DNA from: a virus
Virus record (IMG/VR): IMGVR_UViG_3300008113_000084
Coordinates: 1 to 64,000 of that record
Length of the DNA stretch: 64,000 bases
Direction: 5' to 3' (one strand)
Shown here: positions 1-55,655 of the stretch, one piece after another
How the letters are laid out: the number at the start of each line of letters is the position of its first letter
Position numbering within the stretch: position 1 is the first letter of the stretch
Translations under genes and position numbers: made by a program
Notes under the pieces: generated by a model
The model's input: the letters and a program-made list of their open reading frames with translations, nothing else
The model's database searches: none
What the model was told of the DNA's origin: nothing

Positions 1-4764
<4,764 letters not shown>

Positions 4765-4776
4765 CTAAAAGCTAGC

Positions 4777-9388
<4,612 letters not shown>

Positions 9389-9456
9389 CTACGCGTCCTC
9401 TAAGAAAACAGCACGGGATAGTGAATCCCGCGCTGTCTCGGGAACAACGAGTTATT

Positions 9457-9880: not shown

Positions 9881-12800
9881 TTAAGACTGACTTCCTCTGA
9901 CATTGGAATCTCCTTGTTGATTGTTGCCTAAACCAAGAGCGTCGCCGTAACCAAAGTATCTAGCCACTGGCGTAGCCATAGCAGCTGTACCAGCGGCTAA
10001 ACCCAATAGAGGCAGGAAGCTGCCGCCGCTGTCCTCTTCGCCATCTTCCTCATCTTCGTCTCCGCCCGCAAGGCTACTAAACAAGCCTATGGCTCCAAGG
10101 CTTAGCCCACCCAGCGTAAGCGCCTTCTCCCACGGCTGCATGTTGCCCCAAACTTCATTGGTCAGCTTAGACCACATGCCTGGGTTGTTCTCAAGGGCTC
10201 CGTTTGACTGGTTGTTCAGAGACGCCGCAATGTTGCGCCTGCTTTCCGCGTTCAAAACATCAGCAGCTGAGTTGTCCCTAACGTCTTGAGCAGGCACAGG
10301 CTGCAAGGAATTTGGATCGATCTTATAGGCACCCTGGTTTGCTGCCATGTCTACCTGCTTACCCTTGAACAGGTCGTCAATCAGCTGCTTGGCTGCTGCT
10401 GGGTCCTTGGAAAGCTTGAGGTCCAGGTCGGCTTTTGTGATCTTCCCAGACTTCATCAGCGCCAGCATGGCACTGTTGTAGCTGTGTCTGTTGGCTGTTT
10501 CTTGCATGCTTCTAGCTTTAGCTATAGCCTGCTCACCCTCAGGCGTGTTAATGCCTTTCATCCTGTCGCTAATGGCCTTCTGGGCTGCTTGAGCCACAGC
10601 TGGCAGCTCCTGCTCCATCGGCGCGATCACCTTCCTGTACTGGTTGTCCTGGTACTTGGTCAGGAAAGGTACGACTTTCTCAGTTGCCTGCTTGGAGACA
10701 GCCTCGTAGTTCTGAAGCGACTCCATGTAGGCTTTTTCGTTATTAGCTCGAATGTCTTGCTGCTCTTTGGTTAGAGGCTTTCCAGGAGGAAGAGCCGCCT
10801 GCTGCTGCGTCATCGCTTGAAACTTTGCAGCTATCTGCTGGTTGGCTTCGTTCAAACCTTTCGATGTCTGGTTGTAGGCTTCAAGCTCGTCAAGTGAAAC
10901 GCCTAGCTGCTGCGTCACCTGTCCATTGAGCTGCATGCGCGTGGCGTTTCTGGCGACGGGGTCCGCTATGGAGTTGAGCTTGGCAAGTTGTTCCGAGAAA
11001 CCAGCTACCTGTGGGTCGCTTCCAACGATCCTGTCGGCGTTGATCGCTGCCATATGGGCTGGGAACTGGTTCTCCACAGCCTTGAACGAATCGACAGAGA
11101 TCGGCGCGTTGCCGTCGATGACGTTCTCGGGAGACACGTCGTTGGCGCGCAGAAGGGCGTCCTGGATGGGGGCTGGAGACAACGCTTTCTGTCTGTCGAA
11201 GTAAGCCTGTTCTATGTCCTTTTGAGTGCTGTAGGGATTCAGCTCAGCCGCAATGACGTCCCTGTTCTTGTAGATTTCCTTTCCGCCCATGAAGGTCGGT
11301 AGGCCAGAGCCGATCATGTTAGGCGCAGAAGAAGCCAGGCCAGCCAGGCCTCCAGACATAAACGCCTTGGCTGGCTCGTAGATAAGTCCTCTACCGCCGT
11401 AATAGCCGGTGGCCGCTATGTTGGCGATATGGCTGGCGGCATCCTCACCGACGATGGGAGTCAGAGCTTCTCGACCCAGACCTACCTGCGTGTTAAAAGT
11501 GCCGATGCCTTGCGCCAAGCCGCCAGCCAGCTCACCAACAGCCGCTGGAGCCTTGGCCGCTCCCTGAGCAGTAGCTGCCACAGCCCTGTTTCCTAAGTTG
11601 GACCATGTCCTGGTCGCTGGGTTGTTCAGCAGGTTGGCTCTAGTAGCCATATTTCTGGTCAACGCAGCCGTGCCAGCCCTACCAGCTGCTCTCAAGCCAG
11701 CTCCAGCCCCTGCGCCGATCAGCATGCCCGCATTTGAGTTGAGCATGTCCCAACCAGTGCCCGCTATATCGCCAGCGTAGCCCAGGGCACCTCGATTGGC
11801 GTAGTGCTGCTCCAGCTTCTGTATTTCCTTGAGCGCGCTGGTGTCGCCAGAGCGAGCCCGCAGTCTTAGCTCTTCTGGGATAGTGCCAGACAACCTGTTC
11901 AGCGTCGCCTCATCCAAGCCTGTCCAACGCTTGGCCGTGGCGTTTATGTCTCTGGAATATTGCTCGGCTGCCGCCTGCTGAGCGTTGATGTTCTGGAACT
12001 GGCGCTGCCTGGCGTCTGTGTCTAGCGTGGCTTTGACGCGGTTGTCAAAGTAAGCTTGGGCCAGCTGTTTTTGAGGAGTCTGTTCTTTGGAATTAAGGGC
12101 TTCTACCCAGCTAAAAGGAGCCCCTTCGTAAGCCTGTTCCTGGGCAAACTCGTTAAACCTGGACGCGTCCCTGTTCATGACGTCATACATCATTTCGGCA
12201 GACAGAGGTTTGTTGGGATTGCTCAGGACCTGACGGTCGTTGATATCGGCAACGGGTGCGATGGCGTTGAAGCGGTTCAGGTCGGGAATGGATACGCTGT
12301 CAGGGTTTACAAGACGCTGGTTAACACCGTGTCGTGATAGATTGTCCTGTCCTGAAGTGACACCCTGCCGTATTTTACCCTCAGCACTTACGTAGCCAGG
12401 AAGTTGCCTTAGGCTAAATGGGTCTTGAACAGGCTGAGGCTGCGGCGGCTGCGCTTTAATTCTGGCTCGAAGAAAGGTGGGCTCTGGAGTAGGTTGAGGC
12501 GGCGGGGTTGGAGCTGTGGGAGTCTGCGGTTTTTCTGCAAAAGCTTCCTGTATATTCTTTAGATAGTTGGGCGGTGTCTCAGCTAATTTGCGCAGGAAGG
12601 CCATCTTCTGGGGTTGCTGCGGCTGACCTAGCTGCTGAGCCTTCTGCTGCACAGCCTGCTGAGAGTTAGCGCCGTACTGCGGGCTGTTGCCGGTCAGCGG
12701 GTTTTGCTGGACTGGCTTGATACCGAGAGTGGGTCGGTTGGGGTTGATAGCCGAGGGCAGCGGCACCGAGGGTTTGCCAGAAATCCTGTTGCTGAGAAGC

Positions 12801-12970
12801 GCGGCAGCCTTGTCGAGAAGCTCAGCGCTTAAACTGGCTTCTTTCTCTTTGTCGTTTTCTTTCTTCTCTGGCAAAGCTTTCATATCTTTCGTATGGTCTG
12901 CCCACCTCTTGGCCATCTCTGGGTGGTTTGCAAACATCCAGCGCATCTGTGCTTTTGATTTGAATGGCAT
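9881..12970 (-). CDS. Large putative internal virion/ejection protein
   Basis: Starts MPFKSKAQMRWMFANHPEMAKRW (a motif I recognise from phage proteins); Q/A/P-rich, coiled coil, glycine-rich hydrophobic segments. Function inferred. Confidence 0.6.
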   Translation of the reverse strand: MPFKSKAQMRWMFANHPEMAKRWADHTKDMKALPEKKENDKEKEASLSAELLDKAAALLSNRISGKPSVPLPSAINPNRPTLGIKPVQQNPLTGNSPQYGANSQQAVQQKAQQLGQPQQPQKMAFLRKLAETPPNYLKNIQEAFAEKPQTPTAPTPPPQPTPEPTFLRARIKAQPPQPQPVQDPFSLRQLPGYVSAEGKIRQGVTSGQDNLSRHGVNQRLVNPDSVSIPDLNRFNAIAPVADINDRQVLSNPNKPLSAEMMYDVMNRDASRFNEFAQEQAYEGAPFSWVEALNSKEQTPQKQLAQAYFDNRVKATLDTDARQRQFQNINAQQAAAEQYSRDINATAKRWTGLDEATLNRLSGTIPEELRLRARSGDTSALKEIQKLEQHYANRGALGYAGDIAGTGWDMLNSNAGMLIGAGAGAGLRAAGRAGTAALTRNMATRANLLNNPATRTWSNLGNRAVAATAQGAAKAPAAVGELAGGLAQGIGTFNTQVGLGREALTPIVGEDAASHIANIAATGYYGGRGLIYEPAKAFMSGGLAGLASSAPNMIGSGLPTFMGGKEIYKNRDVIAAELNPYSTQKDIEQAYFDRQKALSPAPIQDALLRANDVSPENVIDGNAPISVDSFKAVENQFPAHMAAINADRIVGSDPQVAGFSEQLAKLNSIADPVARNATRMQLNGQVTQQLGVSLDELEAYNQTSKGLNEANQQIAAKFQAMTQQQAALPPGKPLTKEQQDIRANNEKAYMESLQNYEAVSKQATEKVVPFLTKYQDNQYRKVIAPMEQELPAVAQAAQKAISDRMKGINTPEGEQAIAKARSMQETANRHSYNSAMLALMKSGKITKADLDLKLSKDPAAAKQLIDDLFKGKQVDMAANQGAYKIDPNSLQPVPAQDVRDNSAADVLNAESRRNIAASLNNQSNGALENNPGMWSKLTNEVWGNMQPWEKALTLGGLSLGAIGLFSSLAGGDEDEEDGEEDSGGSFLPLLGLAAGTAAMATPVARYFGYGDALGLGNNQQGDSNVRGSQS

Positions 12971-13448
12971 CGCTTTTACCTGTGTAAACAAGGGCCTGCT
13001 TCAAAAAGTTACCAGCGCGCTCAATCACACCTACGCCGTGGTTGCACCTGTGGCAAAGCAGGCCTCTAACCTCGCCAGTAACGTGGCAATGATCAACGAC
13101 CTCTATTTGGTTAGAACAAAGCTTACACTTTCCACCTTGATTATTATACATCTCCATGAACATTTCTTGCGATAGCTTGTACTTCTGCATGCGTCGCCTA
13201 TTCTGATCGTCGGGTACGCAGGTTTTGCACCATATCTGTCTGGCTGACACAGGCTTGAACCACCTGGAACAGTGTTCGCAAGCCTTTTCTCGTTTGTCTG
13301 CTGCGTTTCCCAAAACAGCGCTGATGGCTCTAGACTTGTTTAAACAATCTTCGCTGCCACATGTCTTGCGGACAATTGAAACGCTTCCATCTTTGTTCCT
13401 GACAACTTTGGCAGGCTTGTCGCAAAATAGACATGTTTTTTGGCACAC
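12822..13448 (-). CDS. Endonuclease VII-family (putative homing) endonuclease with N-terminal Cys-rich region
   Basis: QGGKCKLC...VVDHCHVTGEVRGLLCHRCNHGVG signature. Confidence 0.85.
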   Translation of the reverse strand: MCQKTCLFCDKPAKVVRNKDGSVSIVRKTCGSEDCLNKSRAISAVLGNAADKREKACEHCSRWFKPVSARQIWCKTCVPDDQNRRRMQKYKLSQEMFMEMYNNQGGKCKLCSNQIEVVDHCHVTGEVRGLLCHRCNHGVGVIERAGNFLKQALVYTGKSDAIQIKSTDALDVCKPPRDGQEVGRPYERYESFAREERKRQRERSQFKR

Positions 13449-13458
13449 AGTTATAACC

Positions 13459-13824
13459 TCAAGACGACGATCTTCTTCTGAGGCGGGCTTTGGCTCTTTT
13501 TATTAGCAGTCTAAAGTACAATATAGCGTTATCTACATCGTCGTTATATGTGGCGTAATTGTACAGATGACCAATAAAAAAGTGACATCTAGAACAGAGT
13601 ACAACAAGATTCTTTTCTTCAAGCTCAAGTTCTGGGTATTCGTGTACTGGTTTTTTGTGATGTACTTCTAAATCTTTGTCACTACAGCAAACAGAGCATT
13701 TTTTATTTTTTACAAAGTTGTCTCTACAAGACTGCCAGAGAGGATGACGTCTACTTCCTTGTGTTTGAAATGCTTCAGACCGTACAAACAAAGATGTAAA
13801 CCAATAGGTGAGTTTTTTGAGCAT
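13459..13824 (-). CDS. HNH endonuclease
   Basis: CSVC...LEVHH...NLVVLCSRCH. Confidence 0.85.
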   Translation of the reverse strand: MLKKLTYWFTSLFVRSEAFQTQGSRRHPLWQSCRDNFVKNKKCSVCCSDKDLEVHHKKPVHEYPELELEEKNLVVLCSRCHFFIGHLYNYATYNDDVDNAILYFRLLIKRAKARLRRRSSS

Positions 13825-13842
13825 CTCAAAACCTCACCTTTT

Positions 13843-14244
13843 TTAGACTGGGTAAATGCCGCCAATGTCCTTTCTGACAATGTCGTCTTGGTTTACATCA
13901 GAATTCCAATAAGCCTCTATCAAGTCAACACCACTACCGTTTTCAGGAGCGTAAAACCTGTGCCAAACCCTAGGAGGAACTATGAGCCTCTCGCCAACTT
14001 CAAGTATCACTGTGTGCGCTATGTCAGATATGTTTGAAAGCGTAGGCTCGGCTCTGTAGAAATGAATGTAAAGTTCACCTTTCACGGTGTAGAACAAGTT
14101 GTATTTGTTCTGGTGGCAATGACACGACGAATAGCCACCTGGCTCTATAAAAGCGTGATGCAGCTCAAAGTTGGCATTATGAAAAACTGGGAAGTTTGTT
14201 CCCCAAGCTTTCTCCATAGCCTTTATTACGTCTGTGCTGATCAC
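13843..14244 (-). CDS. Cupin-domain protein (sugar isomerase-like)
   Basis: EKAWG, SSCHCHQNK, VPPRVWHRF cupin motifs. Confidence 0.75.
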   Translation of the reverse strand: MISTDVIKAMEKAWGTNFPVFHNANFELHHAFIEPGGYSSCHCHQNKYNLFYTVKGELYIHFYRAEPTLSNISDIAHTVILEVGERLIVPPRVWHRFYAPENGSGVDLIEAYWNSDVNQDDIVRKDIGGIYPV

Positions 14245-40385: not shown

Positions 40386-40907
40386 TCAAGAAAAATCTTT
40401 ATACAGGCAGCTGGGCATGACGCCCTTTTGCCCTGAATACTTACCAGAGTATGGAACAATCTTTCCGTACGGTGTCTCGTAAGAAATCTGACAGACACAC
40501 GTACCGGCGTACACCTTCAAAGGATGCACAACAGTAATTTCCAAAGTCCACTTGCCTTTGAAGCCCACGTCGCCGAAACCGGCTGTAACGTGAACCTGCA
40601 TACCAAGCCGACCAACGGAACTGCGCCCCTCTATGTGAGGAACGTGATGAGGGGTCTCGGTGTACTCCTCAGTCTCACCCAAGTATAGGACTCCTGGGTT
40701 AAGGTATAAACCCTCTTCGGGTATTTTTATCTCCTGGACCGGATTGTCTCTGCGCATGTCCAAAATAGCGCTTTTGTAAACAAGCAGCCTTTTGCCAAGG
40801 CGCAGGTTGTAACTGTTTGGGTTCACCTGCTCCAGCTTAAACGGCTCGATCACAATTCTTTTTTGGGCAATCTCTTCGACAATAGCCGATCCAGTGAGAA
40901 TTGACAT
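40386..40907 (-). CDS. dcd: dCTP deaminase
   Basis: PNSYNLRL, EGRSSVGRLG, TAGFGDVGFKGKWTLEI. Confidence 0.95.
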   Translation of the reverse strand: MSILTGSAIVEEIAQKRIVIEPFKLEQVNPNSYNLRLGKRLLVYKSAILDMRRDNPVQEIKIPEEGLYLNPGVLYLGETEEYTETPHHVPHIEGRSSVGRLGMQVHVTAGFGDVGFKGKWTLEITVVHPLKVYAGTCVCQISYETPYGKIVPYSGKYSGQKGVMPSCLYKDFS

Positions 40908-43900
40908 TTACACTCCGTAGCTTTCACTGATGCCCATCTGCTGACACTCCTCCTTGGTAACAGGAACCGACCATTTGCGGAAGATGTCGGGAGGAGGAAC
41001 CTGCAAATGAAAAGGTCCAGCTTGAGTGTATCTCGTGCCATCCAAGTGACAAGGGTAAACCTCGACTCTTTTACTCATGCACGTTGGAATGACGTCGGTT
41101 ATCACCCAATCGACGCAGTGATATGGGACTTCCAGAACCACGGCATCATGCACCTGTAGGACGATGTCGTACCACAGGTCTGGGTTTTCCTGCTCATACC
41201 TGTACCAGTACAGGTGGTCCAGGGCGCGGGACATGGCGTCTGCCACAGCGCTCTGGATGGGGAAGTTCATCGCTTGCCTCTGCTGCTCGCTGACAACGTC
41301 CCTTTCTCGCGTGGGGACGAATCGACGATATCGGCCAAAGCAGTTGACGATGTAGCCAGGGTTCTGGCTCATCTCCCTACAGCTGTGGAAATAGTGAGGC
41401 AAAGCTTCATACATAGCCACCAGCCCGTCGATGAGGCGCTGGGCCTGCTCGACGCTGACGTCTGCACCTTCTTGCTTGGCTTTGCGTGAGGTTGCTTCAG
41501 CTTGCTGGCCGTAAGCGTAGCCGAATACCACAGCCTTGGCCGCAGTACGCAGTGCCGCCTTGCCGATGCTAGCCAAGCCTTTCTTGGTGGCTGGGCAAGC
41601 CAGACCGAAAGCAGACACGGCCACATTGCTGTGGATGTCGTAGTACTCTGGATCGGACTCGTCCAAACCAGAGCGACGTACATGGTCGATCATGTTCTTG
41701 TCGCCAGACTGCCACGCCATGATAGCCAGCTCAGCACCTGTGTAGTCGGCATCGACGAACACATGGCCAGGTCTGGCCTCGACAATGGAGCGCAGGGGAA
41801 ACTTGTACCGAAGGCCAGTCTCGTCGCCGTGTCGTTTGAAGACCGCCTTGTACTTCTCCTCAGCCGTCTTTCCCAGATTCTGCAACGGAGGACGAGCGCT
41901 GGAGGCTCGCCCCGTCTCCTTGGTCTGGAAGAACTGGCTGCGCACCCTGCCGTCGATATGGACATACGACAGCAGGCCTGACTCGTATTCAATGCGCCCG
42001 TCCTCGTCCCTGACTGCCTCGCCCTCCTCAACGCCCTTGCCTGGCCTGAGCACGTACTTGGTCAGCTGGGCAACATAGCGAATATCCCGCAGCAGGGCCA
42101 CGCACTCGTGCTGATCGGCCATGATCTGCAAGACTTCCTTGTCGGTGGAGACTTGATTCTCGGCCTCCTGGCCCTTCTGCATGATCTCGCGCCACAGTTT
42201 GGGGCGCTTGCCCGTGGACTTGTAGGGAGTCAGCTCCAGGGAAAGCGCACCCTCGGGTCGGACACGCCTAGGGCCGAAGGTCTCCTTGTCGAATATGCCG
42301 TTGTACTTGACGCCGAAAAGCATCTCGCGGCAGTGCGACACGCTGTTGGGATTGAAATCAGGCCAGTTCAGTTTTCTGCGCAGAATTTCCAGAAGACTGT
42401 CCCTGGTGCGGACATAATGCTCGGTCAGCTCCTCGGCGGAATCCAGGTTGATCTTCAGGCCGGTCATGTGCATCTCGCCGAAAGCGAGGGCGGCGCGAGC
42501 AGACACCCAGAAGGGAATACGACAGTTGTTGCCGTAGGCGTCGCGGTCCAGCAGGCCAGGGCTGTCGCCCACGCCGTTGTAGACATCGAAGAGCCGTCGC
42601 GTCGTGTCGGCGTCGTAATTGCCGTACGGCACGATGATCTCGTCTGGGCAGTCGCCGTAGCCCTCCAAGCCGTCCGAGTCCAGCTTGTTCTCCTCGCAGT
42701 AACGCTTCTTCCATTTCTGTAGTTCAACGTCGTAGCGAGGAACACCGACGAGGCGAGTGCCCAAGACCTCCAGCTTGAAGTCGCCCGTCTCGTTGACCGA
42801 GTGGGCCGCAAGCAGGGTGTCAAAGCCGCCTTGTGTCTTTGTCTTCTGGTAACCGAAGAGCTTGGTGGTCCCGTCAGCCTCATAGTCGTCAATCGGAGCG
42901 CAATACTCCTCGCGGATATCCAGACCCACGCTCATCAGCCACGGCATGTCGGCGTTGAGGTAATGGCCGACAACACGGACTGGACGCTCAGGCGTGGACT
43001 TGAGTATTTTGCGCAGTTCTTGCACAGCGGCTGGGATGCCGCCCGCTATAGGCTCCTTTCCGCCCTGGGTGTGCATGATGACAGCAGCTGCCTTGCCTGG
43101 CTTCCAGCTGATCTGGATGGTGCGAACGTAGGAGTTCTTCTCGCCAGGAAAAGCGCCATTCCACTCAGCGTCTATGGCTATGACGTCGTTTGTCTTATCG
43201 CTAAGAATTTCTTCACGCAGGTCTGCCAGCTCCTCCACGGAACGTATAGTCCTGTGGTCGATCTGGTCAACGACTACGCTGCTGCCGTTAACGCACCTGG
43301 CCAGGTACTCTACAGAACATTTGATCTCGTCGAACTTCTCGGGCTTCTTGACGGCGATACTGGGACTGATCGAGGTTATGGCGTTGGCCTCGACAATTTC
43401 TCCATCTATGGCCGTGTACGTGTACTTGAGCACGCGTCCTTGGGTGTTGCTGATAGTGTGGCCTCTGCCGAGCACGGCGGAGATGGCTTCTGACCCAAGC
43501 AGAAGAATGTGCTTGGGTTTGACGATGCGTATCTCCTGGTGCAGAATAGGCAGGCAGTTCTTCATCCAGCATGCCTTGAAGTTGGTGCTTCTGGGGTCTG
43601 GGTGATCGTGCTTGATCACGGGAGTAGCGTAGACAGGCACGGTGTTGTCCAGACCAGCGCCCATGAAGCACCTGTCCAGAATGTCATGAACGCTGCCTGT
43701 GATGGGCCTGCCCTCACGAATGTCGGTCTTCGTGGCATGCTTGTAGATCATCATGATGTCGCAAGGCTGCGGCCCCATGACAACATCGGCGTCCCAAATG
43801 CCACCGATCAAAAACGGCAGAGTATGCATTCGGGCCATGTAGGCGACGGGCATGGCGAACATATCATCGTACATCGCTCTGTAGTAGAGCTGCTGCAACT

Positions 43901-44105
43901 CAAACTCTTTGGTCTTGTAGAGAATTCCTTTGTTCTCAAGCAGACTGGAATAATTGTCGAAGTCAGGTCCTGGTCCTGGCATCTCGTCCGAATCGATAGG
44001 CAGCATTGGAAAGAGTGAACCTAGACCCGCCTCTCCGTTCTCCTCTCCGCGCAGCATGTGCAAGAACTTGATCTCGGAATAAACACTTCTGAACAGGTGA
44101 CTCAT
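40908..44105 (-). CDS. polA: Family A DNA polymerase with N-terminal UDG-like and 3'-5' exonuclease domains
   Basis: QEIRIVKPKHILLLG (UDG family 4-like), IDAE, YDAD, ETGRASS.RPPLQN, DADYTGAEL, RTAAKAVVFGYAYG, NFPIQS, QVHD. Confidence 0.95.
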   Translation of the reverse strand: MSHLFRSVYSEIKFLHMLRGEENGEAGLGSLFPMLPIDSDEMPGPGPDFDNYSSLLENKGILYKTKEFELQQLYYRAMYDDMFAMPVAYMARMHTLPFLIGGIWDADVVMGPQPCDIMMIYKHATKTDIREGRPITGSVHDILDRCFMGAGLDNTVPVYATPVIKHDHPDPRSTNFKACWMKNCLPILHQEIRIVKPKHILLLGSEAISAVLGRGHTISNTQGRVLKYTYTAIDGEIVEANAITSISPSIAVKKPEKFDEIKCSVEYLARCVNGSSVVVDQIDHRTIRSVEELADLREEILSDKTNDVIAIDAEWNGAFPGEKNSYVRTIQISWKPGKAAAVIMHTQGGKEPIAGGIPAAVQELRKILKSTPERPVRVVGHYLNADMPWLMSVGLDIREEYCAPIDDYEADGTTKLFGYQKTKTQGGFDTLLAAHSVNETGDFKLEVLGTRLVGVPRYDVELQKWKKRYCEENKLDSDGLEGYGDCPDEIIVPYGNYDADTTRRLFDVYNGVGDSPGLLDRDAYGNNCRIPFWVSARAALAFGEMHMTGLKINLDSAEELTEHYVRTRDSLLEILRRKLNWPDFNPNSVSHCREMLFGVKYNGIFDKETFGPRRVRPEGALSLELTPYKSTGKRPKLWREIMQKGQEAENQVSTDKEVLQIMADQHECVALLRDIRYVAQLTKYVLRPGKGVEEGEAVRDEDGRIEYESGLLSYVHIDGRVRSQFFQTKETGRASSARPPLQNLGKTAEEKYKAVFKRHGDETGLRYKFPLRSIVEARPGHVFVDADYTGAELAIMAWQSGDKNMIDHVRRSGLDESDPEYYDIHSNVAVSAFGLACPATKKGLASIGKAALRTAAKAVVFGYAYGQQAEATSRKAKQEGADVSVEQAQRLIDGLVAMYEALPHYFHSCREMSQNPGYIVNCFGRYRRFVPTRERDVVSEQQRQAMNFPIQSAVADAMSRALDHLYWYRYEQENPDLWYDIVLQVHDAVVLEVPYHCVDWVITDVIPTCMSKRVEVYPCHLDGTRYTQAGPFHLQVPPPDIFRKWSVPVTKEECQQMGISESYGV

Positions 44106-47470: not shown

Positions 47471-48976
47471 TCACAGCTTACCCCTTGTCCTGGCTGGAGG
47501 CTGCTCCCAGCCCTGTCGAACATACGTCCGTTTGCGCTCTTGGCTACGCCTGAAGAAACCGCTGTCGAAGTAGTCCATACAGTCTATGACCAAACCGTGA
47601 TCTTTGCCAGAAGCGTCATGCCTACGAACAACACGGCCAGGAGCCTGTATGTCCATAATCTCACTGGCACGAGCGTCTGCTCGTATCAGTACTGACAGCT
47701 GAGGAAAGTCCACGCCTGTGGACCATACATCTGTAGCTATCACCTTCTTCAAGGTACCAGCTTCAAAATCCTTAGACATCTTGTCTCGAATCTGCGGTGT
47801 CATGGCAGGCTCGGTTAGCTTGTCGAGCATACCCTTCTTGACAAGCGCCTCGTACTGGTCGGTATCCATTTTGTCGTAGCAAAGTTTGAAGTCTGGCAGC
47901 TCTTGCTTGAGATAAACGGCATGCTCGAGCGTGCGCACCAAGATAAGCACCTGGTCGTCAGAGTCAAACTCGTTTGCCTTCTGGGCAATGAGGTTGTTCC
48001 TGAACTGGTTGCGCCAGATGCCCCAGCGCTCCTTGGCGGTGTCCTTCTTGAACTCGCATGGATTAACCGGCATGCGCACGTCAATCCACTCAACCTGAAC
48101 AGGCAAAACCAGTCCGTGCTGTACAGCCTCCTGGTAAGTCATCTCAAAGATGCGTGGGCCGAACAGGCCTTCCAGTCGGTGGTGAGCACCGTCGAATCGA
48201 CCCTCTGGTGTTGCCGTAAACCCGAACATGCGAACATGCTGGTACTTGGCTAGCTCGACGGAATAAGACGGGGCCGCTGCTTCATGCACCTCGTCGTATA
48301 GGACGATGTCAGCGCACTCGCCTGGCGTGTGGTCAACCAGATGCAGCGAGTCAGCCGTGATAACGGTAACCCGACCCCACCGACGCTGACCGCCGCCGAC
48401 TTGACCGACGTCAGGAATGAACTTGACCAGATGGCGCAGCAATCGCTGCATAACATCTTTGCGCTTGGTGATGACGTGGATACGGGCGTTGGGATGCATC
48501 ATGCAGATAGCGCCGAACAGGAACGACTTGCCGAAGCCTGTCGGTGCGACAATGATGCCTCCCTCGCTAACGGATATGGCAGCTATACACTCGTCCTGTT
48601 TGGCCTTCAAGTCCATCCGCGCGAAAACACGATTAAAGTCTGTGTGAAAGCGCTCAGGGTTTGGCAAAGGTGGAGGGTAGTCCACAATCTCAACTGGCGC
48701 GCCGAATTCCTGACACAATCCGTAAACCCTGTGGCTGAAGCCTTTGGGAAAAATTAGACGGCCTGTCTCGTCGTAGGCGAAGAGCTTTACTTCCTCGGAT
48801 TGAAAGGGGGCGTATCCGCCTCGCTGATAGGCGTCCTGTCCGCGCAACTGGGATACGTGGGTGTAGGTCAGCTGGCTTTCAATCTTCTTGATCATGCCAA
48901 AAGGCGGTTCACCACTGACTACTTCCAGCTCCGCCAGGTTGCCTTTTCTGTGCAGTCTGAAACGTGAAGACGACAT
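47471..48976 (-). CDS. SF2 DEAD/DEAH helicase (UvsW/XPB-like)
   Basis: APTGFGKS, DEVH, GFTATP, STGVDFP, QAPGRVVR. Confidence 0.92.
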   Translation of the reverse strand: MSSSRFRLHRKGNLAELEVVSGEPPFGMIKKIESQLTYTHVSQLRGQDAYQRGGYAPFQSEEVKLFAYDETGRLIFPKGFSHRVYGLCQEFGAPVEIVDYPPPLPNPERFHTDFNRVFARMDLKAKQDECIAAISVSEGGIIVAPTGFGKSFLFGAICMMHPNARIHVITKRKDVMQRLLRHLVKFIPDVGQVGGGQRRWGRVTVITADSLHLVDHTPGECADIVLYDEVHEAAAPSYSVELAKYQHVRMFGFTATPEGRFDGAHHRLEGLFGPRIFEMTYQEAVQHGLVLPVQVEWIDVRMPVNPCEFKKDTAKERWGIWRNQFRNNLIAQKANEFDSDDQVLILVRTLEHAVYLKQELPDFKLCYDKMDTDQYEALVKKGMLDKLTEPAMTPQIRDKMSKDFEAGTLKKVIATDVWSTGVDFPQLSVLIRADARASEIMDIQAPGRVVRRHDASGKDHGLVIDCMDYFDSGFFRRSQERKRTYVRQGWEQPPARTRGKL

Positions 48977-49057
48977 GTTGACTCCGTGGACAAAAAGACA
49001 TCTATGTCGGCAGGGGTGTGCCGACATAGGAGAGTATGCGCCTGTAAGAAAAACAGT

Positions 49058-50059
49058 CTAGGTTTTCTTACAGAAAGTTTCCCTAAACCGAACTACTTCT
49101 TCAGGGCTGGCGAAGAAGTGCTCTGGAACGAACAGGGACTCGTTCCAGGGATTGGGCATAGGGTACAGCAAGTTTAGCCAGCAGCCGTGTAGATACGATA
49201 GGAATTTCTGGCACGTGGCAAGAACAGCCTCGTCAAAATATTCTTTACGCTCTAGAGGGCTGCCGCTGATAAAAGACGACGCGACGTTAAAATAAGTGCC
49301 TAGCAGGAAATCCGTCTTGCCTGAGTCAGGCGTGATTAACATGGCGTCCCAGTTCTTGTAGGCCTGCCAGGAGCTGACCACAAAACCTCGGCGCTGTGCC
49401 TTGGTGATAACGCCATCGTGGCCCTGCTCTTCGGACAGCCCGTGCTTGAGCTTGTTGACACCCATGTAGTCGTAATACTTCGACAGCTTGTTGGGGAAGA
49501 AAGTGTCAACAAACCAGCGAGGATCAATAGTCTGAGCGACGACCAGCATGCACGCATGATCGTTGACGCCTGGGACAAAACGCAGGTATTTAGCCAGAGG
49601 AAGCTGCTCGTACAGGGCCATCAAAACATCCAGGTTAGCCGACACTGAACCAGGCTCAGCCAGGATGTGCGACATCGTGTACACGATGTGATCGTCTTTG
49701 GTAACGCTGTGAAAGCCACCCAGAGTCGATGGATACTTCCAGCGACGCATGTTGAGCAAAACTTTTTCTGGGCAATATTCATCGAGATTGATCAGCTCGA
49801 CTTGAGGGCTGCAAACCTGTACGTCTTTCAGCTCTCCCTTAACTTTGGCTTCATACAAAGCCGTTATCATCCTGGCATTTCTGCTGTCACCAACCAACCG
49901 AACAGTCAGTTTCTTGTTTAGAAAAGAAGGGCTGTCGCAGTAGTCCTCGTAGAGTATGTTGGACGGCCTTGGTGTGCCGTTACCTGAGATATACCACACT
50001 TCATCGTCGAGAGAGTTGTACAACTTGAGTGTGGTTGTTTCATCGGTAAGGACACCCAT
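49058..50059 (-). CDS. IS110/Nop-domain-like protein with degenerate N-terminal domain
   Basis: YLRFVPGV...VAQTIDPRWF...SKYYDYMGV and C-terminal QKFLSYLHGCW patterns; GAGGAGG SD. Confidence 0.55.
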   Translation of the reverse strand: MGVLTDETTTLKLYNSLDDEVWYISGNGTPRPSNILYEDYCDSPSFLNKKLTVRLVGDSRNARMITALYEAKVKGELKDVQVCSPQVELINLDEYCPEKVLLNMRRWKYPSTLGGFHSVTKDDHIVYTMSHILAEPGSVSANLDVLMALYEQLPLAKYLRFVPGVNDHACMLVVAQTIDPRWFVDTFFPNKLSKYYDYMGVNKLKHGLSEEQGHDGVITKAQRRGFVVSSWQAYKNWDAMLITPDSGKTDFLLGTYFNVASSFISGSPLERKEYFDEAVLATCQKFLSYLHGCWLNLLYPMPNPWNESLFVPEHFFASPEEVVRFRETFCKKT

Positions 50060-50074
50060 GGTGCCTCCTCAGAC

Positions 50075-52201
50075 CTAATGCAGGTCTATTGTATGGTCGA
50101 ATAAGTGTCCAATGTTCTTCTCGTGAGTTACCACGAGAATCTGCACACCGTTAGAGGCTGAAAATTGTTTTAATCGGTCAAAGGCTTTCTCCAACGCGCC
50201 CAGGTTAGCCTCGTCCAAACCCACCGTGGGCTCGTCAAGGCAAAGTAAACCCAAGTTAGCAGCGAAAGTGGAATTAACAGCCAACCTGTAGGCGATGGTC
50301 AGGATAACCTTTTGACCGCCCGACAACCTGGCTGCTGGTACTTTCTTAGACCCAAAATTCGCTGTGAATGATAGGTCTTGCTCTAACTCTATATTAAACG
50401 GAACGCCAATCTGAGCCAATGTGTTATTTAGCTCTGTGACAACCTTAGCCATGTACTTGTACGACAGCACCATAGGAAGCGCGTTGTACTTGAATACCTT
50501 TTTAAGGTTGTCAATGCGCTCGTTCCAAGAGTCGTGCAGCGCTGCGAGGCTGAGCTGGTTGCGCGCCGCTTCTATCTTTTGATTGCAATTTTTGACCTCA
50601 GCTTCAGACAGGGCAATGTCCGTCTTCAGCTTCTGGATGCGCGACTTGGTGATTTTCAGCTCGGAAATCACGGTGTTTGCCGAGTTGACGCTGCTCTCGT
50701 CCAGGTCGGAGTAGCCCTTCAGCTCATCCAATTCCTTCTGCATTTCAGCTGTCTGGTGGTCCAGAGAGGTGCCAAGCCTGCCGCCCAAGACATCCAGGGC
50801 GTTGATTTTGTTACCAGTGGCGACGAACGAATCTTTCAGGATTTTCTTCTTTTCCAGTATTCCCTTGGCCTCGTCCCTGGAGACGGAGGGTTGGGCCACC
50901 TCAACCAGATCGGCCAGAGTTTTGTTGGCTGTCTCCAGTCGCTTGACGAAGTTGGTCTTCCAAGCCAGGTGCAGCACCTTCTTCTTGTCAAATGCCGCCG
51001 TGCTGGCGATCTGCTCCGTCAAGGCCGTGATGCTGTCGGACAGAGCCAGCAGCTCCTCCTTGGCCTCAAGCCACTTGTCCTTCAGGTTGCTGGCTGGAGT
51101 ACCGCAGGTGGGACAGCTGGCTGACTCGTCCTCTGGGTTGATGGACGAGATGAACTGGTTGTGTTGGCGCTGCTTGAACTTCAAGCTGTCCAGAGTCAGG
51201 GTCACGGACTCCAAGTCCGTCAGGTAGTCGTAGGGTTGCTGGGGTTCTGGATTCAGCAGCTTCTCGGCCTCCAGGATGTTCAGGGCCTTCTGGGCCTGCT
51301 GCTGCTGGTGGAGGTAGCTGTCGTACTTGATCCACAGCGCCTCGACTTTCAAAGCCTCCTCAGCTGACGGCTCGATCTGGTCTATGGCGTCATGCAAAGC
51401 CAGCAGCTCATCGGTGAGCTCCTGGGTCTTGGCATCGTGCTCCGTCTTATCCTGCTCCAGCTTTTTGATCGCCTCCAGTCGGCTGGCTACAGAGTTCTCC
51501 AGCTTTACCTTTCTTGCCCACAGGCTGACGATGTTGCTGTACTGCAAAATTTCAGAGTCGAGATCGGTCTCGGAAGGCAGTGCTTCCAGGGCAGTCGTGA
51601 GGTCCTTGACAGCCTGCACCGCCTTGCTGAAATTGTCGTTAAGCTCCTGGAGGTTCTGCGAGGCGATGCCGACGGTGGACAGCTTGAGGCTGCCGTCAGA
51701 CAGGTTGTCGCCAATCTTGTTCAGCTGCTCAATCTTGAACAGCTTCTGGAAAGCCGAGATTCGCTTCGCTGCCGACAGCGCCAGAGGACCAAAGTTGTCC
51801 CACTGCTCGACGAAAACGTATTGCCCGAGAATCTCCTTGTCTACCTCCAGGATGTGCAGCAGCTTCTCCAACACTTCCTTGTCCGAGGTGTATATCTTGT
51901 CGTTGACAAACAGCTGGCGGTCCACGGGCTCCAGCCGACGTAGCAGCCGCAGGTCCTGGCTGTTGTGTGAGAAGTGCAGGTCCACACTGCACTCTCCGCC
52001 GTCGGTGTTCAAGGAGATGTTCTCGGCTGCCTTGCCCGCATTCCTGCCGAAGTCGCCAGTCAAAGCGCCGTAGACGGCGTTTAGGATGTTTGACTTTCCC
52101 GAACCGTTAGGACCGACGATGACGTTCAGACCCTTCTGGAACTCGACGGTCCTGCTGATGTGCTGGCAGAAGTTGCGCAGTTTTACCTTCTTAAGAAACA
52201 T
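50075..52201 (-). CDS. sbcC: SbcC/Rad50-like ATPase
   Basis: GPNGSGKS, CPTC zinc hook, LSGGQ, LDEPT, VTH. Confidence 0.95.
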   Translation of the reverse strand: MFLKKVKLRNFCQHISRTVEFQKGLNVIVGPNGSGKSNILNAVYGALTGDFGRNAGKAAENISLNTDGGECSVDLHFSHNSQDLRLLRRLEPVDRQLFVNDKIYTSDKEVLEKLLHILEVDKEILGQYVFVEQWDNFGPLALSAAKRISAFQKLFKIEQLNKIGDNLSDGSLKLSTVGIASQNLQELNDNFSKAVQAVKDLTTALEALPSETDLDSEILQYSNIVSLWARKVKLENSVASRLEAIKKLEQDKTEHDAKTQELTDELLALHDAIDQIEPSAEEALKVEALWIKYDSYLHQQQQAQKALNILEAEKLLNPEPQQPYDYLTDLESVTLTLDSLKFKQRQHNQFISSINPEDESASCPTCGTPASNLKDKWLEAKEELLALSDSITALTEQIASTAAFDKKKVLHLAWKTNFVKRLETANKTLADLVEVAQPSVSRDEAKGILEKKKILKDSFVATGNKINALDVLGGRLGTSLDHQTAEMQKELDELKGYSDLDESSVNSANTVISELKITKSRIQKLKTDIALSEAEVKNCNQKIEAARNQLSLAALHDSWNERIDNLKKVFKYNALPMVLSYKYMAKVVTELNNTLAQIGVPFNIELEQDLSFTANFGSKKVPAARLSGGQKVILTIAYRLAVNSTFAANLGLLCLDEPTVGLDEANLGALEKAFDRLKQFSASNGVQILVVTHEKNIGHLFDHTIDLH

Positions 52202-53327
52202 TGGCTACTCCCTGTAAATGCTCGTTGCGCATCTCTAACAGCTCCTGCTCGACATTTCCTGAATTGAAGATGCGCACGGCATCCTTGTGGGCGACAGTGC
52301 TTTCGGAGAACCCTGTCTGTTCCACGCATTCAGATATGTCAACAAGCTCTTGTATGTGTTTACGTTCCACAGCTGCCGTGACTTCACTTGAGTTGAAGTC
52401 AGTCGGAATGATTTCGTAATTCCAGTTGCGGAACTTGTCACACAGCAAGTCGTAAGCGTTAGGAATGTTGTTTTGATATCGCACACATACCAGCGGAGTG
52501 GCTATGTGTTCTGGCAAATCCCTGTGCGGCCATTCGATCAGTAAGTCCTCGTTAGTCAGGTTCATCAGTATGTCAAAATGCTTTTCAGACTTGAGCTCAA
52601 ATAGAGCGAATGGCCTAGTCTTAAGACGATACTGAGTCCAACTAAGATCACTGTTCAAAATGAATATGAACTTGTGAGGAGGCTCATTAGTCGCCTGCAT
52701 ATTAATGGAGCCAGAAGACAAACACTCTGTGCCGTCTATGCGCAGAATCTCAGTCTTGTGGTAATCGCCAGTGTAGATAACCTTGGCGAAAGCGGCGTTT
52801 TTGAACATAAAGTTCTCGTCGCTTTTCTTTATAAAGTCAGCCCATACCTGGTGCGTCACGTATAGGTCAAAGCGGTCCTTGCCTGCATAAGAGTGCATGA
52901 CGCGACACTGATCGGCAAAGCGGTTGCCTGAGAACTCGATGTCTTGACCGACGACACGAAGACCCTGTATCTCAAACTCCTTGAACGGCTGGGAAGTCTT
53001 GAAGCTGTCAATATGGACGGCGTTGGAGCACAAGCTCATCCACGGAACTTCTGACAGCTCATGCTGGCCTTGCACGTAGAAAACAGGAATGCCGACGCGC
53101 TCCAACCGTTTCATCTGCTCAAAGCAGAATACGACAGACTCACTGGGCGGCTGTTTGATGTCGAAAAGATCGCCAGCAGCAATTAGAGGAACATCCAGCT
53201 TTATGCAAAGATCAACGATCTGTTGCAGAGAGTAATAAGAATCCCTGTGAACATTTGGATGTTTCTTCCAAGAAAAAGGACTCAGATGCCAATCGGACGT
53301 CAGCACCAGCAGGGGTTTTACAGCCAT
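52191..53327 (-). CDS. sbcD: SbcD/Mre11-like nuclease
   Basis: SDWH, AGDLFD, GQHE, THQ, GDYH; start refined to MAVKP. Confidence 0.9.
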   Translation of the reverse strand: MAVKPLLVLTSDWHLSPFSWKKHPNVHRDSYYSLQQIVDLCIKLDVPLIAAGDLFDIKQPPSESVVFCFEQMKRLERVGIPVFYVQGQHELSEVPWMSLCSNAVHIDSFKTSQPFKEFEIQGLRVVGQDIEFSGNRFADQCRVMHSYAGKDRFDLYVTHQVWADFIKKSDENFMFKNAAFAKVIYTGDYHKTEILRIDGTECLSSGSINMQATNEPPHKFIFILNSDLSWTQYRLKTRPFALFELKSEKHFDILMNLTNEDLLIEWPHRDLPEHIATPLVCVRYQNNIPNAYDLLCDKFRNWNYEIIPTDFNSSEVTAAVERKHIQELVDISECVEQTGFSESTVAHKDAVRIFNSGNVEQELLEMRNEHLQGVANVS

Positions 53328-53402
53328 AAATCTTTCTCCTGGGTTGAAGTGCTGATGCGGGTCTATACAATGTCCCAAGAGGCACGTTGAAAGGAGTTCA
53401 AA

Positions 53403-53582
53403 ATGCTCGTTGTGACGCGGAGACCTAAAGAGATTATCAGAATAAATGAGAACATAGTTGTAGAGGTTTTAATCATCAACAATGGAAGTGTCAAGATAGG
53501 CATACAGGCTCCAAAAGATATACCGGTGATGCGTGGTGAATTAAGAGGTTCGTGCAGAAAGACTAGAAAGGATAGCGAATAA
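53403..53582 (+). CDS. csrA: Carbon storage regulator CsrA/RsmA homologue (59 aa)
   Basis: Found by hand: MLVVTRRPKEIIRINENIVVEVL...VKIGIQAPKDIPVMRGEL; AGGAG SD. Confidence 0.9.
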   Translation: MLVVTRRPKEIIRINENIVVEVLIINNGSVKIGIQAPKDIPVMRGELRGSCRKTRKDSE

Positions 53583-54214
53583 TGTCAATCAAGTGCGCTG
53601 TTGTCGTGAGTCATCCTGCTGGCGGCGGCAGTCTTATCGCTAAGACGCTTATGGCCATGGGCTTCAAAACTCCAGGCATTCCGTCAGACGAAACCAACGA
53701 CTGGAACCTGGTGGCTGTCAATCAGATCATGTGCGACAGAGCGCACAAACCAAAGATATCCCTAGGCATGGCCAAGCACGCCATGGAGCCTATGACGGGA
53801 TACATCGACGACAAGATCAAAGAGGGCCAAAACTGGATCATGCACGATCCAATGCTGTGCATGACATTTTTCGAGTTCGCGCAGCTGCTGAAGGAAAAGG
53901 GAGTAGACTACAAAATAATAATAGCCCTGCGTAAGCCCCACTACAGCGCGCTGGAAATTGTCAGGTCAGACAAAGAATGGACGCTTGAAGAAGCCTCCAG
54001 CCTGTTGGGAAAATACATCGTAGCCAGGTCTCTAAACACAGACCGCTTCTATCTGGAGAACAAAGAAGACGTGTCGCGTGTGCTGCATCTGGACGTCAAC
54101 AGTCTGCTGGACGACACAGACAAGGCAGTAGAGCTGTTGGCTACAGAAATTGGCGTCGAGCTGACTGACGAGGCTAAGGAAGCAATTGGAAAGCTGCTCA
54201 AGCCTGCGTCTTGA
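53582..54214 (+). CDS. Sulfotransferase-fold protein, degenerate
   Basis: VVSHPAGGGSLIAKTL, WIMHDPMLC and IIALRKP align by eye to the MHRSGTS, WKDPR and R.P motifs. Confidence 0.55.
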   Translation: MSIKCAVVVSHPAGGGSLIAKTLMAMGFKTPGIPSDETNDWNLVAVNQIMCDRAHKPKISLGMAKHAMEPMTGYIDDKIKEGQNWIMHDPMLCMTFFEFAQLLKEKGVDYKIIIALRKPHYSALEIVRSDKEWTLEEASSLLGKYIVARSLNTDRFYLENKEDVSRVLHLDVNSLLDDTDKAVELLATEIGVELTDEAKEAIGKLLKPAS

Positions 54215-55655
54215 CGCCTTCAGCCGTTCTGGTGGTAGACATGTCAGGAACCATGTCTACCAGCATCAGCTGACCGCCGCTGTTCACAACGAACTCTGCG
54301 CCAGGAACAACAGAAGACACGTACTCGGAACCCTTGACAAGGATGTCCGGTTTGACCGCCTCGATCAGAGGCACCAGCTCTTCCTGCTCAAATGTGACAA
54401 CGGCATCAACGCACTCCAGGGCCGCAACCATACGCGCCCTGTTGGCAGCGCCGACAAACGGCCTGCCTTCCCCTTTGAGTGCCTTGATGCTGGCGTCGCT
54501 ATTCACACCAACGAGAAGATAGCCACCAGCGAATTTAGCCTGCTCGAGCAGATGCACGTGGCCTGCGTGCAATAGGTCGAAGCAGCCGTTGGCGAATACA
54601 ATCTTCTCGTTGGTAGATCGGAGTTGCTGCGCCCAAGACAGCGCAGCCTGCTGAGACATCAGCTTGGACAGAGAGCTAACCTGCGTGGGTCGGGCCATAA
54701 ACAGGTCCAGCTCCATGCGGTGAACAACAGTAGTGCCAGGCTTGGACACAGCCAAAGCGCTGGCCGCGTTGGCAAAGACGATAGCGTCCCGAATCGAGCG
54801 GCCCTCGCAGATGGCTACAGACAGCGCGGCTATAAAAGTATCTCCAGCTCCTATGACGTCTGTCTTGCAGGTTGTGAAGGCAGGCAAGCTGCCAGCCGTT
54901 TTGGTGTTGTTGTCGTACCAGCTGCAACCGTTTTGCGCCCGAGTTACCACGGCCAGGGACAGGTTGGGCAGACGCTGCGCCAACTGCGCGGCAAGAGACT
55001 CGCAAGCGGAGTCGCTTTTGGAAGACACGGCTCTGGCATCGACACCAAGCACAGCACAAGCCTCGTTGAAATTGGGCGTGATACAGTCGGCGCTGTGCCA
55101 GTCCAGCATGCCCGACGGCTTGGCGTCTACGAACAGAAAAATATTGGGGTGGCTTGAGCGTATATCCTGTAGGGCCTGGCGCAGCTCTGGGCTGACAGCT
55201 CCCTTGGCGTAATCAGAAACAATGATGGCCTTGATGTCCCTGCTAACGCTTCTGAGCTTGAACAGAACATTCTCCTGAAACTTGCCGTAAGTGGGCGAGG
55301 CGTCTGCCCGCATCTCTCTGTCGGTGCGCAGCACCTGGTAGCCTCCGACCATAATGCGCGTCTTGACAGATGTGTGGTACTCAGACAGCGTCGTAACATC
55401 TGTCGAGACATTCATAGTGTCGAGGCTGAATGTCAGGCGCTTGGCTTCGGGGTCAGCTCCGACCGGCGAGAACAGGATAACGGGGCTGTTGAGAGCCTGG
55501 ATCGACGAAGCGACGTGGGCGGCACCGCCTGGGCAAAACATCTCGTACTTGGTGGTGACGACAGGAACGGGGGCCTCTGGCGATATCCTGTGTACGTCGC
55601 CGTGGACGTAGTGATCCAGGATGGAGTCGCCGACAACCGCGATAATGGTAGACAC
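54198..55655 (-). CDS. hldE: Bifunctional heptose 7-phosphate kinase / heptose 1-phosphate adenylyltransferase
   Basis: RISPEAPVPVV, SDYAKG, TPN, DVIGAGDTF, NGCFDLLHAGH, VKG, STT. Confidence 0.95.
   Translation of the reverse strand: MSTIIAVVGDSILDHYVHGDVHRISPEAPVPVVTTKYEMFCPGGAAHVASSIQALNSPVILFSPVGADPEAKRLTFSLDTMNVSTDVTTLSEYHTSVKTRIMVGGYQVLRTDREMRADASPTYGKFQENVLFKLRSVSRDIKAIIVSDYAKGAVSPELRQALQDIRSSHPNIFLFVDAKPSGMLDWHSADCITPNFNEACAVLGVDARAVSSKSDSACESLAAQLAQRLPNLSLAVVTRAQNGCSWYDNNTKTAGSLPAFTTCKTDVIGAGDTFIAALSVAICEGRSIRDAIVFANAASALAVSKPGTTVVHRMELDLFMARPTQVSSLSKLMSQQAALSWAQQLRSTNEKIVFANGCFDLLHAGHVHLLEQAKFAGGYLLVGVNSDASIKALKGEGRPFVGAANRARMVAALECVDAVVTFEQEELVPLIEAVKPDILVKGSEYVSSVVPGAEFVVNSGGQLMLVDMVPDMSTTRTAEGVKTQA

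Follow-up and report, generated by a model that had tools for sequence, protein, structure and literature searches.

The gene at positions 49058–50059 (minus strand) of a 64,000-nucleotide stretch of viral DNA encodes a 333-residue protein, P0001, which, judging from its predicted structure, is a diverged member of the TasR lineage with a RuvC-like N-terminal and a Nop-like C-terminal domain. The stretch, referred to here as the window, is the first 64 kb of the 89,381-bp IMG/VR virus record IMGVR_UViG_3300008113_000084 (G000; CheckV completeness 43%). The gene is a fixed, single-copy component of an uncultured freshwater phage lineage with genomes of ~150–226 kb. Because its product has lost the residues needed for cutting, no array of guide RNAs accompanies it, and it is tied to the genes of the Mre11–Rad50-type nuclease SbcCD, the fold has probably been co-opted for a role in recombining or replicating DNA. 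We favour, with about even confidence, the reading that the TasR-like protein is a non-catalytic nucleic-acid-binding accessory of phage SbcCD.

The open reading frame (ORF) is a genuine gene and not a chance one, since it has 15 close homologues (44–90% identity), belongs to a family of 770 clusters and is under strong purifying selection, as follows from comparison with an 80%-identical orthologue (pN 0.12 versus pS 0.75, the latter saturated). It lies on the minus strand and contains all of the strings quoted in the original prediction, which was made from the sequence of the window (LPLAKYLRFVPGV, ACMLVVAQTIDPRWF, SKYYDYMGV, ATCQKFLSYLHGCW and VQVCSP). Nearly identical DNA is present in metagenomes of freshwater or lakes (20 runs, 13 studies); no RNA sequencing run with a match to the phage DNA was found among the public runs searched.

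An AlphaFold2 model calculated from a 102-sequence alignment (mean predicted local distance difference test, pLDDT, 92.1; predicted template-modelling score, pTM, 0.91) divides the protein into two domains:

49058..50059, minus strand: TasR-like gene encoding P0001, 333 residues (ORF and translation), single copy, member of a family of 770 clusters.
49706..50059, minus strand: N-terminal RuvC/RNase-H-like domain, residues 1–118, delimited in the model and predicted to be catalytically dead.
49061..49705, minus strand: helical Nop-like C-terminal domain, residues 119–333, aligning to the TasH Nop domain over 124..329.

The N-terminal domain has the topology β1–β2–β3–α–β4–α–β5, with strands at residues 10–15, 20–25, 31–36, 52–56, and 79–83. 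In an all-against-representatives structure search, the closest match is TIGR-TasR (9MTY_B; Z 11.7, root-mean-square deviation 5.8 Å, 256 residues over 9..326), followed by TasH (Z 9.2, 164 residues over 124..329, corresponding to its Nop domain) and by the IS110 recombinase ISCro4 (Z 7.5, 238 residues). The remaining matches, with Z of at most 6.5, cover the RuvC-like domain only and comprise poxvirus and phage resolvases, TnpB, Cas12, and RuvX. The scores of TasR and TasH exceed those of all unrelated structures, a result reproduced, with the same ranking of folds, by a second, independent model built from a shallower alignment. In Foldseek, the top nine matches are chains of IS621 and ISCro4 (E 5.6e-4, probability 1.0), with TasH and TasR next. 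The predicted model thus has the RuvC-like plus Nop-like architecture common to TasR and IS110, as had been supposed from sequence motifs. Residues 121–160, which correspond to the coiled-coil region of Tas and IS110, are predicted to form four short helices of no more than 14 residues each; 256 of the 294 TasR residues nonetheless align with the model. As far as the model can be relied on, the dimerising coiled coil has probably been lost in the TasR-like family.

The TasR-like protein is nearer to Tas than to IS110 by sequence as well as by structure. The NCBIfam model NF052498 (TIGR_Tas_endo, RNA-guided endonuclease) matches 43 of the 102 family members at E ≤ 0.01 (best 2.1e-9), always within the central Nop-like region; P0001 itself has no match to it. 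Since all these scores fall far under the 100-bit cut-off, the family is, on sequence grounds, a distant relative of Tas and not an equivalog. The seed alignment of the Tas profile hidden Markov model (HMM) of Faure et al. 2025 (PMC12045711) holds AF-A0A3M1VGY1, a protein bearing the signature motifs of the TasR-like family. The likeness of the terminal helix to that of Tas, pointed out in the original prediction, is found again in Table S1 of the same authors, in which Tas sequences read '...KLFLSHLHGAW...' where P0001 reads 'QKFLSYLHGCW'. The relation to IS110, in turn, is structural only. PF02371 is detected faintly in two of the 102 members (best E 0.077), P0001 has no match to PF01548 or PF02371 in Pfam at E ≤ 1, and an hhalign comparison of the family with an IS4321-type profile, which is shallow, its members being at least 66% identical, gives a probability of 0.14.

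Although the fold of the N-terminal domain is retained, its active site is not. Over the 160 family members in which catalytic positions were counted, no acidic residue is conserved at the RuvC catalytic positions. Strand β1 carries Lys12 (84% Lys/Arg) and His/Tyr14, with Asp16 present in 44% only, and strand β4 carries Arg54 (88% Lys/Arg) and Gly57; after β5, positions 93, 96, and 98 are occupied by Asp or Glu in 41–56%. The absence of a DEDD set, previously noted for P0001, is borne out by the counts across the 160 members, and the sequences support the accompanying claim that the protein is nuclease-dead. The catalytic serine of IS110 has no counterpart either: there is no conserved Ser or Thr between Gly200 and Arg223, and the loop that follows G200-L-x-P varies in both length and sequence. 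The residues that are conserved are mostly structural and include Trp22, Gly57, Asn61, Pro85, G114-G115-W/F116-H117, Asp/Glu123, Tyr127, D179-P-R-W, Gly200, Arg223, Trp231, Trp294, Phe310, Pro312, and Phe316.

The family is large and restricted to viruses. A profile search of 1.84 billion representatives yields 770 clusters (50% identity) at E ≤ 1e-3, nearly all with lengths of 290–350 residues, and the 62 loci obtained in two scans of IMG/VR all lie on viral contigs, many of which are 150–226 kb long. No cellular relative was found with the pattern [IVA][IL]DPRWY[IV]D in 185,579 bacterial and archaeal species, each represented by one genome. Each of four genomes at least 91% complete contains exactly one TasR-like copy and no canonical Tas. 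Among cultured phages, a tblastn search of 50,697 genomes gave no match to P0001 or to the phage SbcC, and the helicase and polymerase have distant matches only. P0001 is likewise without a match in Pfam (E ≤ 1), PHROGs, PADLOC, or PDB sequence searches; an ESM Atlas search with the TasR-like protein returned unnamed clusters only, and a fold search of BFVD gave no clear match.

In all 62 loci, as far as the contig permits, the genes lie on one strand in the order sbcD, sbcC, TasR-like gene, superfamily 2 (SF2) helicase, (245-residue gene), dnaB-like, primase, and polA, and this order is kept even where the TasR-like protein is only 23–30% identical. The start of the TasR-like gene overlaps the stop of sbcC in 33 of 51 unique loci, and the two are no more than 30 nt apart in 14 more. 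In a control search anchored on the helicase, and thus independent of the TasR-like gene, the latter is found upstream of the helicase in 71 of 80 loci; of the nine loci without it, three extend less than 0.9 kb upstream. In two genomes, G007 and G009, a divergent TasR-like copy is located kilobases away from the helicase. The copy in G007 overlaps the stop codon of an SbcC-like gene by ATGA, whereas in G009 a single ORF of 170 residues separates the two. Since both genomes keep the linkage to sbcC without an adjoining helicase, sbcC, and not the helicase, is the constant partner. Placing the gene in a core replication operon, as was originally done, was correct inasmuch as it is fixed, single-copy, and non-mobile within a block of recombination and replication genes; the conserved partner within that block is, however, specifically sbcC.

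The corresponding features of the window, in the order of transcription, are as follows:

52191..53378, minus strand: sbcD/Mre11-like phosphoesterase gene, 395 residues (weak Pfam Metallophos_2 match; conserved position).
50075..52201, minus strand: sbcC/Rad50-like ATPase gene, 708 residues (Pfam SMC_N, AAA_23, and SbcC_Walker_B; PHROG 77).
50064..50070, minus strand: Shine–Dalgarno sequence GAGGAGG, read from the sequence, 4 nt before the ATG of the TasR-like gene and 4 nt past the sbcC stop.
49042..49073, minus strand: perfect 11-bp hairpin with the stop codon of the TasR-like gene in its loop (arms CTGTAAGAAAA and TTTTCTTACAG, read from the sequence).
48992..49029, minus strand: GC-rich 11-bp hairpin followed by a U tract, resembling a terminator and separating the TasR-like gene from the helicase gene (terminator scan).
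47471..48976, minus strand: SF2 helicase gene, the usual downstream neighbour (Pfam ResIII and Helicase_C; PHROG 16; synteny).

The sbcD/Mre11-like gene overlaps the start of sbcC, which ends at 50075, leaving the previously described 15-nt gap with its strong Shine–Dalgarno sequence; the same arrangement is found in locus L002, which carries the 80%-identical relative. The gap of 81 nt to the helicase gene also stands if translation of the latter starts at the ATG at 48976, with GGAG just upstream; the longest helicase ORF extends to 49027, but it crosses the terminator-like hairpin. The 96 nt around that hairpin (48970–49065) fold with −27.7 kcal/mol (z −3.4). Both hairpins have equivalents in L002, the terminator-like one with a G–U change and the other as an inverted repeat. 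The terminator-like hairpin is placed after the TasR-like gene and not after sbcC, and the conserved hairpins downstream of the TasR-like gene suggest that sbcD, sbcC, and the TasR-like gene form one transcriptional unit. Past the SF2 helicase, the same strand carries the 245-residue ORF, followed by a DnaB-like helicase, a DnaG-like primase, and a family-A polymerase.

In most loci of the distant clade (L006–L063), an ORF of 164–180 residues lies between the TasR-like gene and the helicase (for example, L019:10932–11429). An HMM of this ORF recovers the copy in G003 at E 1e-87 but detects no counterpart in either G000 or G001 (93% complete); the clade of the window (the window and L002–L005), as well as a few others, therefore carries the TasR-like gene without this neighbour, a feature described here for the first time. 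In two loci (L014:12931–15690 and L062 ~11329–13989), the helicase homologue is split by an intein-like insert of ~400 residues that begins with 'C(V/A)CISV..DDGLYLT...VTHN', giving an ORF of 919 residues compared with the usual ~510.

A guide RNA for the TasR-like protein was sought in several ways. Analysis of tandem repeats in the window with Tandem Repeats Finder (TRF) reveals no TIGR-like array, the only repeats being collagen-like coding triplets at 1–9400, and Rfam and tRNA scans of the window found nothing. Because TIGR spacers would defeat TRF, a periodic scan was added for 7-mers present in three or more copies spaced evenly 25–90 nt apart; no such 7-mer is present outside the collagen-like genes in G000 (the 89-kb record), G001 (93% complete), or G003 (complete). 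The scan of whole genomes proposed in the original prediction thus gives no TIGR-like array in G001 or G003. Stem-loop units with unfamiliar box motifs could escape such scans. There is little space for an array in any case: the three genomes are ~95% covered by ORFs, with a largest gap of 545 nt by a crude ORF count, and together with the tight flanks of the gene (15 and 81 nt) this supports the earlier statement that the locus has no room for one. In G000 and G001, matches to a PateTasR-type pattern (stem, CUU-N8-11-UG twice, stem) are no more frequent than chance would give, and G003 has five scattered matches versus 0.8 expected. Folding of 70-nt windows through 52 homologous genes, prompted by the idea of an intragenic guide that might hide in the variable loops, reveals no consistent structure there. 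Two orphan RNA elements of the window had been put forward as guides acting in trans, but both are poor candidates: the element at 59.4 kb is conserved (83%) in G001 only, the closest relative, and the element at 63.6 kb has no match in G001 or G003.

Other repeated or conserved non-coding stretches were seen in the same genomes. The collagen-like Gly-X-Thr triplet repeats at 1–9400 are very long, occupy at least three large minus-strand ORFs that are probably fibre genes, and account for nearly all tandem repeats of the window, with a similar region in G001 at 61.6–76.2 kb. Tandem repeats of long period are located at G001:11–553, G001:167452–167860, and G003:20984–21861 (161 nt × 3.5, 138 nt × 3, and 180–189 nt × 3.6, respectively). 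Outside the window, two intergenic stretches of 74–80 nt in G000 (68627–68700 and 85833–85912) are 91–95% conserved with G001 versus ~74% around them; extra copies are present in G001 and G003, and the two stretches probably encode tRNAs or other small RNAs of that kind.

Several known systems resemble the TasR-like protein, each with characteristic differences. TIGR-Tas was defined by Faure et al. 2025, who note TasRs with inactive RuvC. The dual-repeat TaTasR (9MTY) is the best structural match (Z 11.7, 256/294 residues) and has the same order of domains, but it has an active RuvC (Asp11), draws on an adjacent array for the 36-nt tigRNAs that it processes and uses, and is only 12% identical to P0001. 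Dead stem-loop TasRs are RNA-guided repressors and were reported as still DNA-binding (Xu et al. 2026, bioRxiv 10.64898/2026.09.09.750476). Two of them, PateTasR and CsTasR, resemble the family in having their RuvC catalytic positions replaced, partly by Arg, a Nop-like C-terminal domain, and ~330 residues; however, they have their own stem-loop tigRNA arrays, a coiled-coil dimer, and bacterial hosts of the candidate phyla radiation, whereas the TasR-like family is arrayless, virus-only, and tied to sbcC. Xu et al. 2026 also describe 'one long phylogenetic branch' of compact TasRs with no coiled coil and no arrays, in densely packed viral genomes. The TasR-like family is probably this arrayless divergent tas clade, as matched by the published description alone: both have TasR-type RuvC-like and Nop domains, no detectable TIGR array, and viral genomes without intergenic room. 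The clade is called compact, while the proteins described here have 300–340 residues; its coiled coil is reported missing, where short helices are predicted for the TasR-like family; and the main text of the preprint assigns it no function. SbcC, Rad50, and Mre11 are not mentioned in the main text of either Faure et al. 2025 or Xu et al. 2026. IS621 and ISCro4 share the two-domain fold and the C-domain pattern L..(I/V)PG(V/I).....A..L......D....F, but the TasR-like gene lacks the DEDD set, the catalytic Ser, a bridge RNA locus, mobility, and a match to the IS4321-type profile. Finally, Nop5 and Nop56/58 of box C/D small nucleolar ribonucleoproteins also combine a dead RuvC-like domain with a Nop domain, and the dead domain of Nop5 recruits a partner enzyme, fibrillarin (10.1101/2024.06.21.599552; Faure et al., PMC12045711). 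Nop5 acts on RNA targets, together with L7Ae, fibrillarin, and C/D RNAs, none of which was seen in the present case, where no search was aimed at them; we propose Nop5 as a functional analogy for the TasR-like protein and SbcCD.

The characterised Tas, IS110, and Nop5 relatives all bind guide RNA via their Nop-like domains, and the TasR-like protein could still bind DNA under RNA guidance, as the nuclease-dead stem-loop TasR repressors do, with its guide or guides placed elsewhere, inside coding sequence, or derived from transcripts. Such a protein might direct SbcCD or the helicase to selected sequences. We regard this explanation as possible, but rather unlikely. The Nop-like domain is the best-conserved part of the family, as well as the region matching the Tas model, and the median isoelectric point (pI) of the family is basic (8.7); stem-loop tigRNAs are flexible in position, even within genes, and Xu et al. 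leave open 'an alternative guide RNA source'. What speaks against it is that neither TRF nor the periodic 7-mer scan found a dual-repeat array in G000, G001, or the complete G003, where ~95% ORF coverage leaves no gap above 545 nt, that the PateTasR-type pattern stays at chance level in G000 and G001, with its five matches in G003 being scattered, and that the gene shows no RNA-structure signal through 52 homologues. The orphan RNAs are not conserved past the nearest relative, and the coiled-coil region, which dimerises Tas on one tigRNA, appears in the model to have shrunk to short helices. On these data, the TasR-like protein may or may not be RNA-guided, and a single divergent guide may be embedded in the genome.

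The remaining explanations assign the protein an activity of its own or a different place in the biology of the phage. A resemblance in operon logic to the archaeal cluster of mre11, rad50, herA, and nurA is consistent with one of them, in which the TasR-like protein would be a structure-specific nuclease or resolvase that is active through a non-canonical catalytic site, in a NurA-like or RuvC-like role beside Mre11–Rad50 and the helicase. The resolvase-fold matches (canarypox resolvase, Z 6.5; RuvX, Z 6.0; phage RuvC, Z 5.9) also agree with such a role, as do the invariance of Glu20, Asp93, and Glu98 within the close clade and the wide conservation of the polar residues His117, Asp/Glu123, and His153. 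We nevertheless consider it improbable, as the acidic residues at the β1, β4, and post-β5 positions are never more than 56% conserved among the 160 members, Lys12 and Arg54 stand on β1 and β4, His153 is replaced by Leu in P0001, and two fold searches gave no match to NurA. Similarly low is the probability that the protein is a counter-defence or host-takeover factor that is simply carried along in the early/replication operon; it could, for instance, inhibit RNA-guided or SbcCD-type systems of the host or act as a decoy for them. A virus-only family, a gene dispensable in some relatives, and the frequency of TIGR-Tas genes in phages would all agree with this, but the position next to sbcC, with translational coupling, is kept even in ~25%-identical relatives, whereas accessory counter-defence genes tend toward variable regions, and PADLOC gave no match. 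An IS110-family insertion sequence, whether functional or recently decayed, suggested by the fold likeness to IS621 and ISCro4 and by the faint PF02371 matches in two of 102 members, has almost no probability. In addition to the missing DEDD residues and catalytic Ser, P0001 has no Pfam match, the hhalign comparison with the IS4321-subfamily profile found nothing, and the gene, flanked by 15 and 81 nt, is single-copy and keeps its place throughout more than 60 genomes. An IS110 mobile element was accordingly rejected on the basis of the fixed orthologous position in 62 of 62 loci and the absent catalytic residues.

In the explanation that we favour, the TasR-like protein would act as a non-catalytic accessory of SbcCD that helps to recognise or hold the DNA or RNA–DNA structures processed by SbcCD and the neighbouring SF2 helicase, in the course of recombination-dependent replication or end processing, and would do so without programmable guidance. 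Its dead RuvC-like domain would have a scaffolding role, as in Nop5 and the nuclease-dead TasRs, and the protein would be expressed from the SbcD–SbcC message, usually through translational coupling. Several observations weigh against this explanation. P0001 itself is acidic (pI 5.8, compared with the family median given above) and carries substitutions at two widely conserved sites, H153L (His in 97% of members) and R254G (Arg/Lys254), which makes it a poorer fit to a nucleic-acid binder. In the fragmentary locus L130 and in L150, which belongs to G005, sbcC abuts the helicase with no TasR-like gene between them, and no TasR-like copy is present anywhere in G005 (187.6 kb, 94% complete) or in G008 (144 kb, complete, with terminal repeats). 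The gene is therefore dispensable for some SbcCD modules, being accessory to some and not essential to all. Adjacency and coupling demonstrate co-expression only, from which a physical or functional partnership with SbcCD is inferred; no fused forms were found among proteins of 619–2000 residues, although this is weak evidence. Lastly, since every characterised relative uses a guide RNA, there is room for a single hidden guide. We can also speculate, by analogy with Nop5, whose dead RuvC domain recruits fibrillarin, that the protein might be a targeting subunit that binds a guide (a single RNA that lies hidden, or else a transcript or a strand of DNA supplied in trans) or a specific DNA structure and recruits the co-translated SbcCD in trans; such a composite machine is an unlikely arrangement.

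Some further genes in and around the replication block deserve a brief description. The family-A DNA polymerase (1065 residues; 40908–44105, minus strand) has an N-terminal domain of the uracil-DNA-glycosylase superfamily (PF03167, residues 128–257) that precedes the 3'-5' exonuclease and polymerase domains. The block is flanked on one side by a gene for a full-length HldE-like bifunctional kinase/cytidylyltransferase (PfkB and CTP_transf_like; 54198–55655, minus strand) and on the other by a dCTP-deaminase-like gene (40386–40907, minus strand); these two genes hint at remodelling of nucleotide sugars or of the nucleotide pool by the phage. Just upstream of sbcD, on the opposite strand (53403–53582, plus strand), an ORF of 59 residues (MLVVTRRPKEIIRINENIVVEV...GIQAPKDIPVMRGEL) has, by eye, the look of a CsrA-family RNA-binding regulator.

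The known uses of this RNA-holding fold, in Tas, IS110, and Nop5, each depend on guide RNA. The TasR-like family represents a large virus-only branch (~770 clusters) in which the fold is kept under strong selection, while the nuclease, the array, and probably the coiled coil have been lost, and which is tied to Mre11–Rad50. If the protein is guide-free, it would be an example of an RNA-guided scaffold turned into a DNA repair or replication factor, and if it is guided, it would constitute a new means of aiming SbcCD. A composite machine, in turn, would amount to an RNA- or structure-directed Mre11–Rad50 nuclease acting in phage replication or in attack on host DNA. The relatives without the TasR-like gene, as well as the clades with or without the ~165-residue gene that follows it, provide natural controls, and the question left open by Xu et al. 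2026 on arrayless Tas proteins thereby gains a concrete, testable context.

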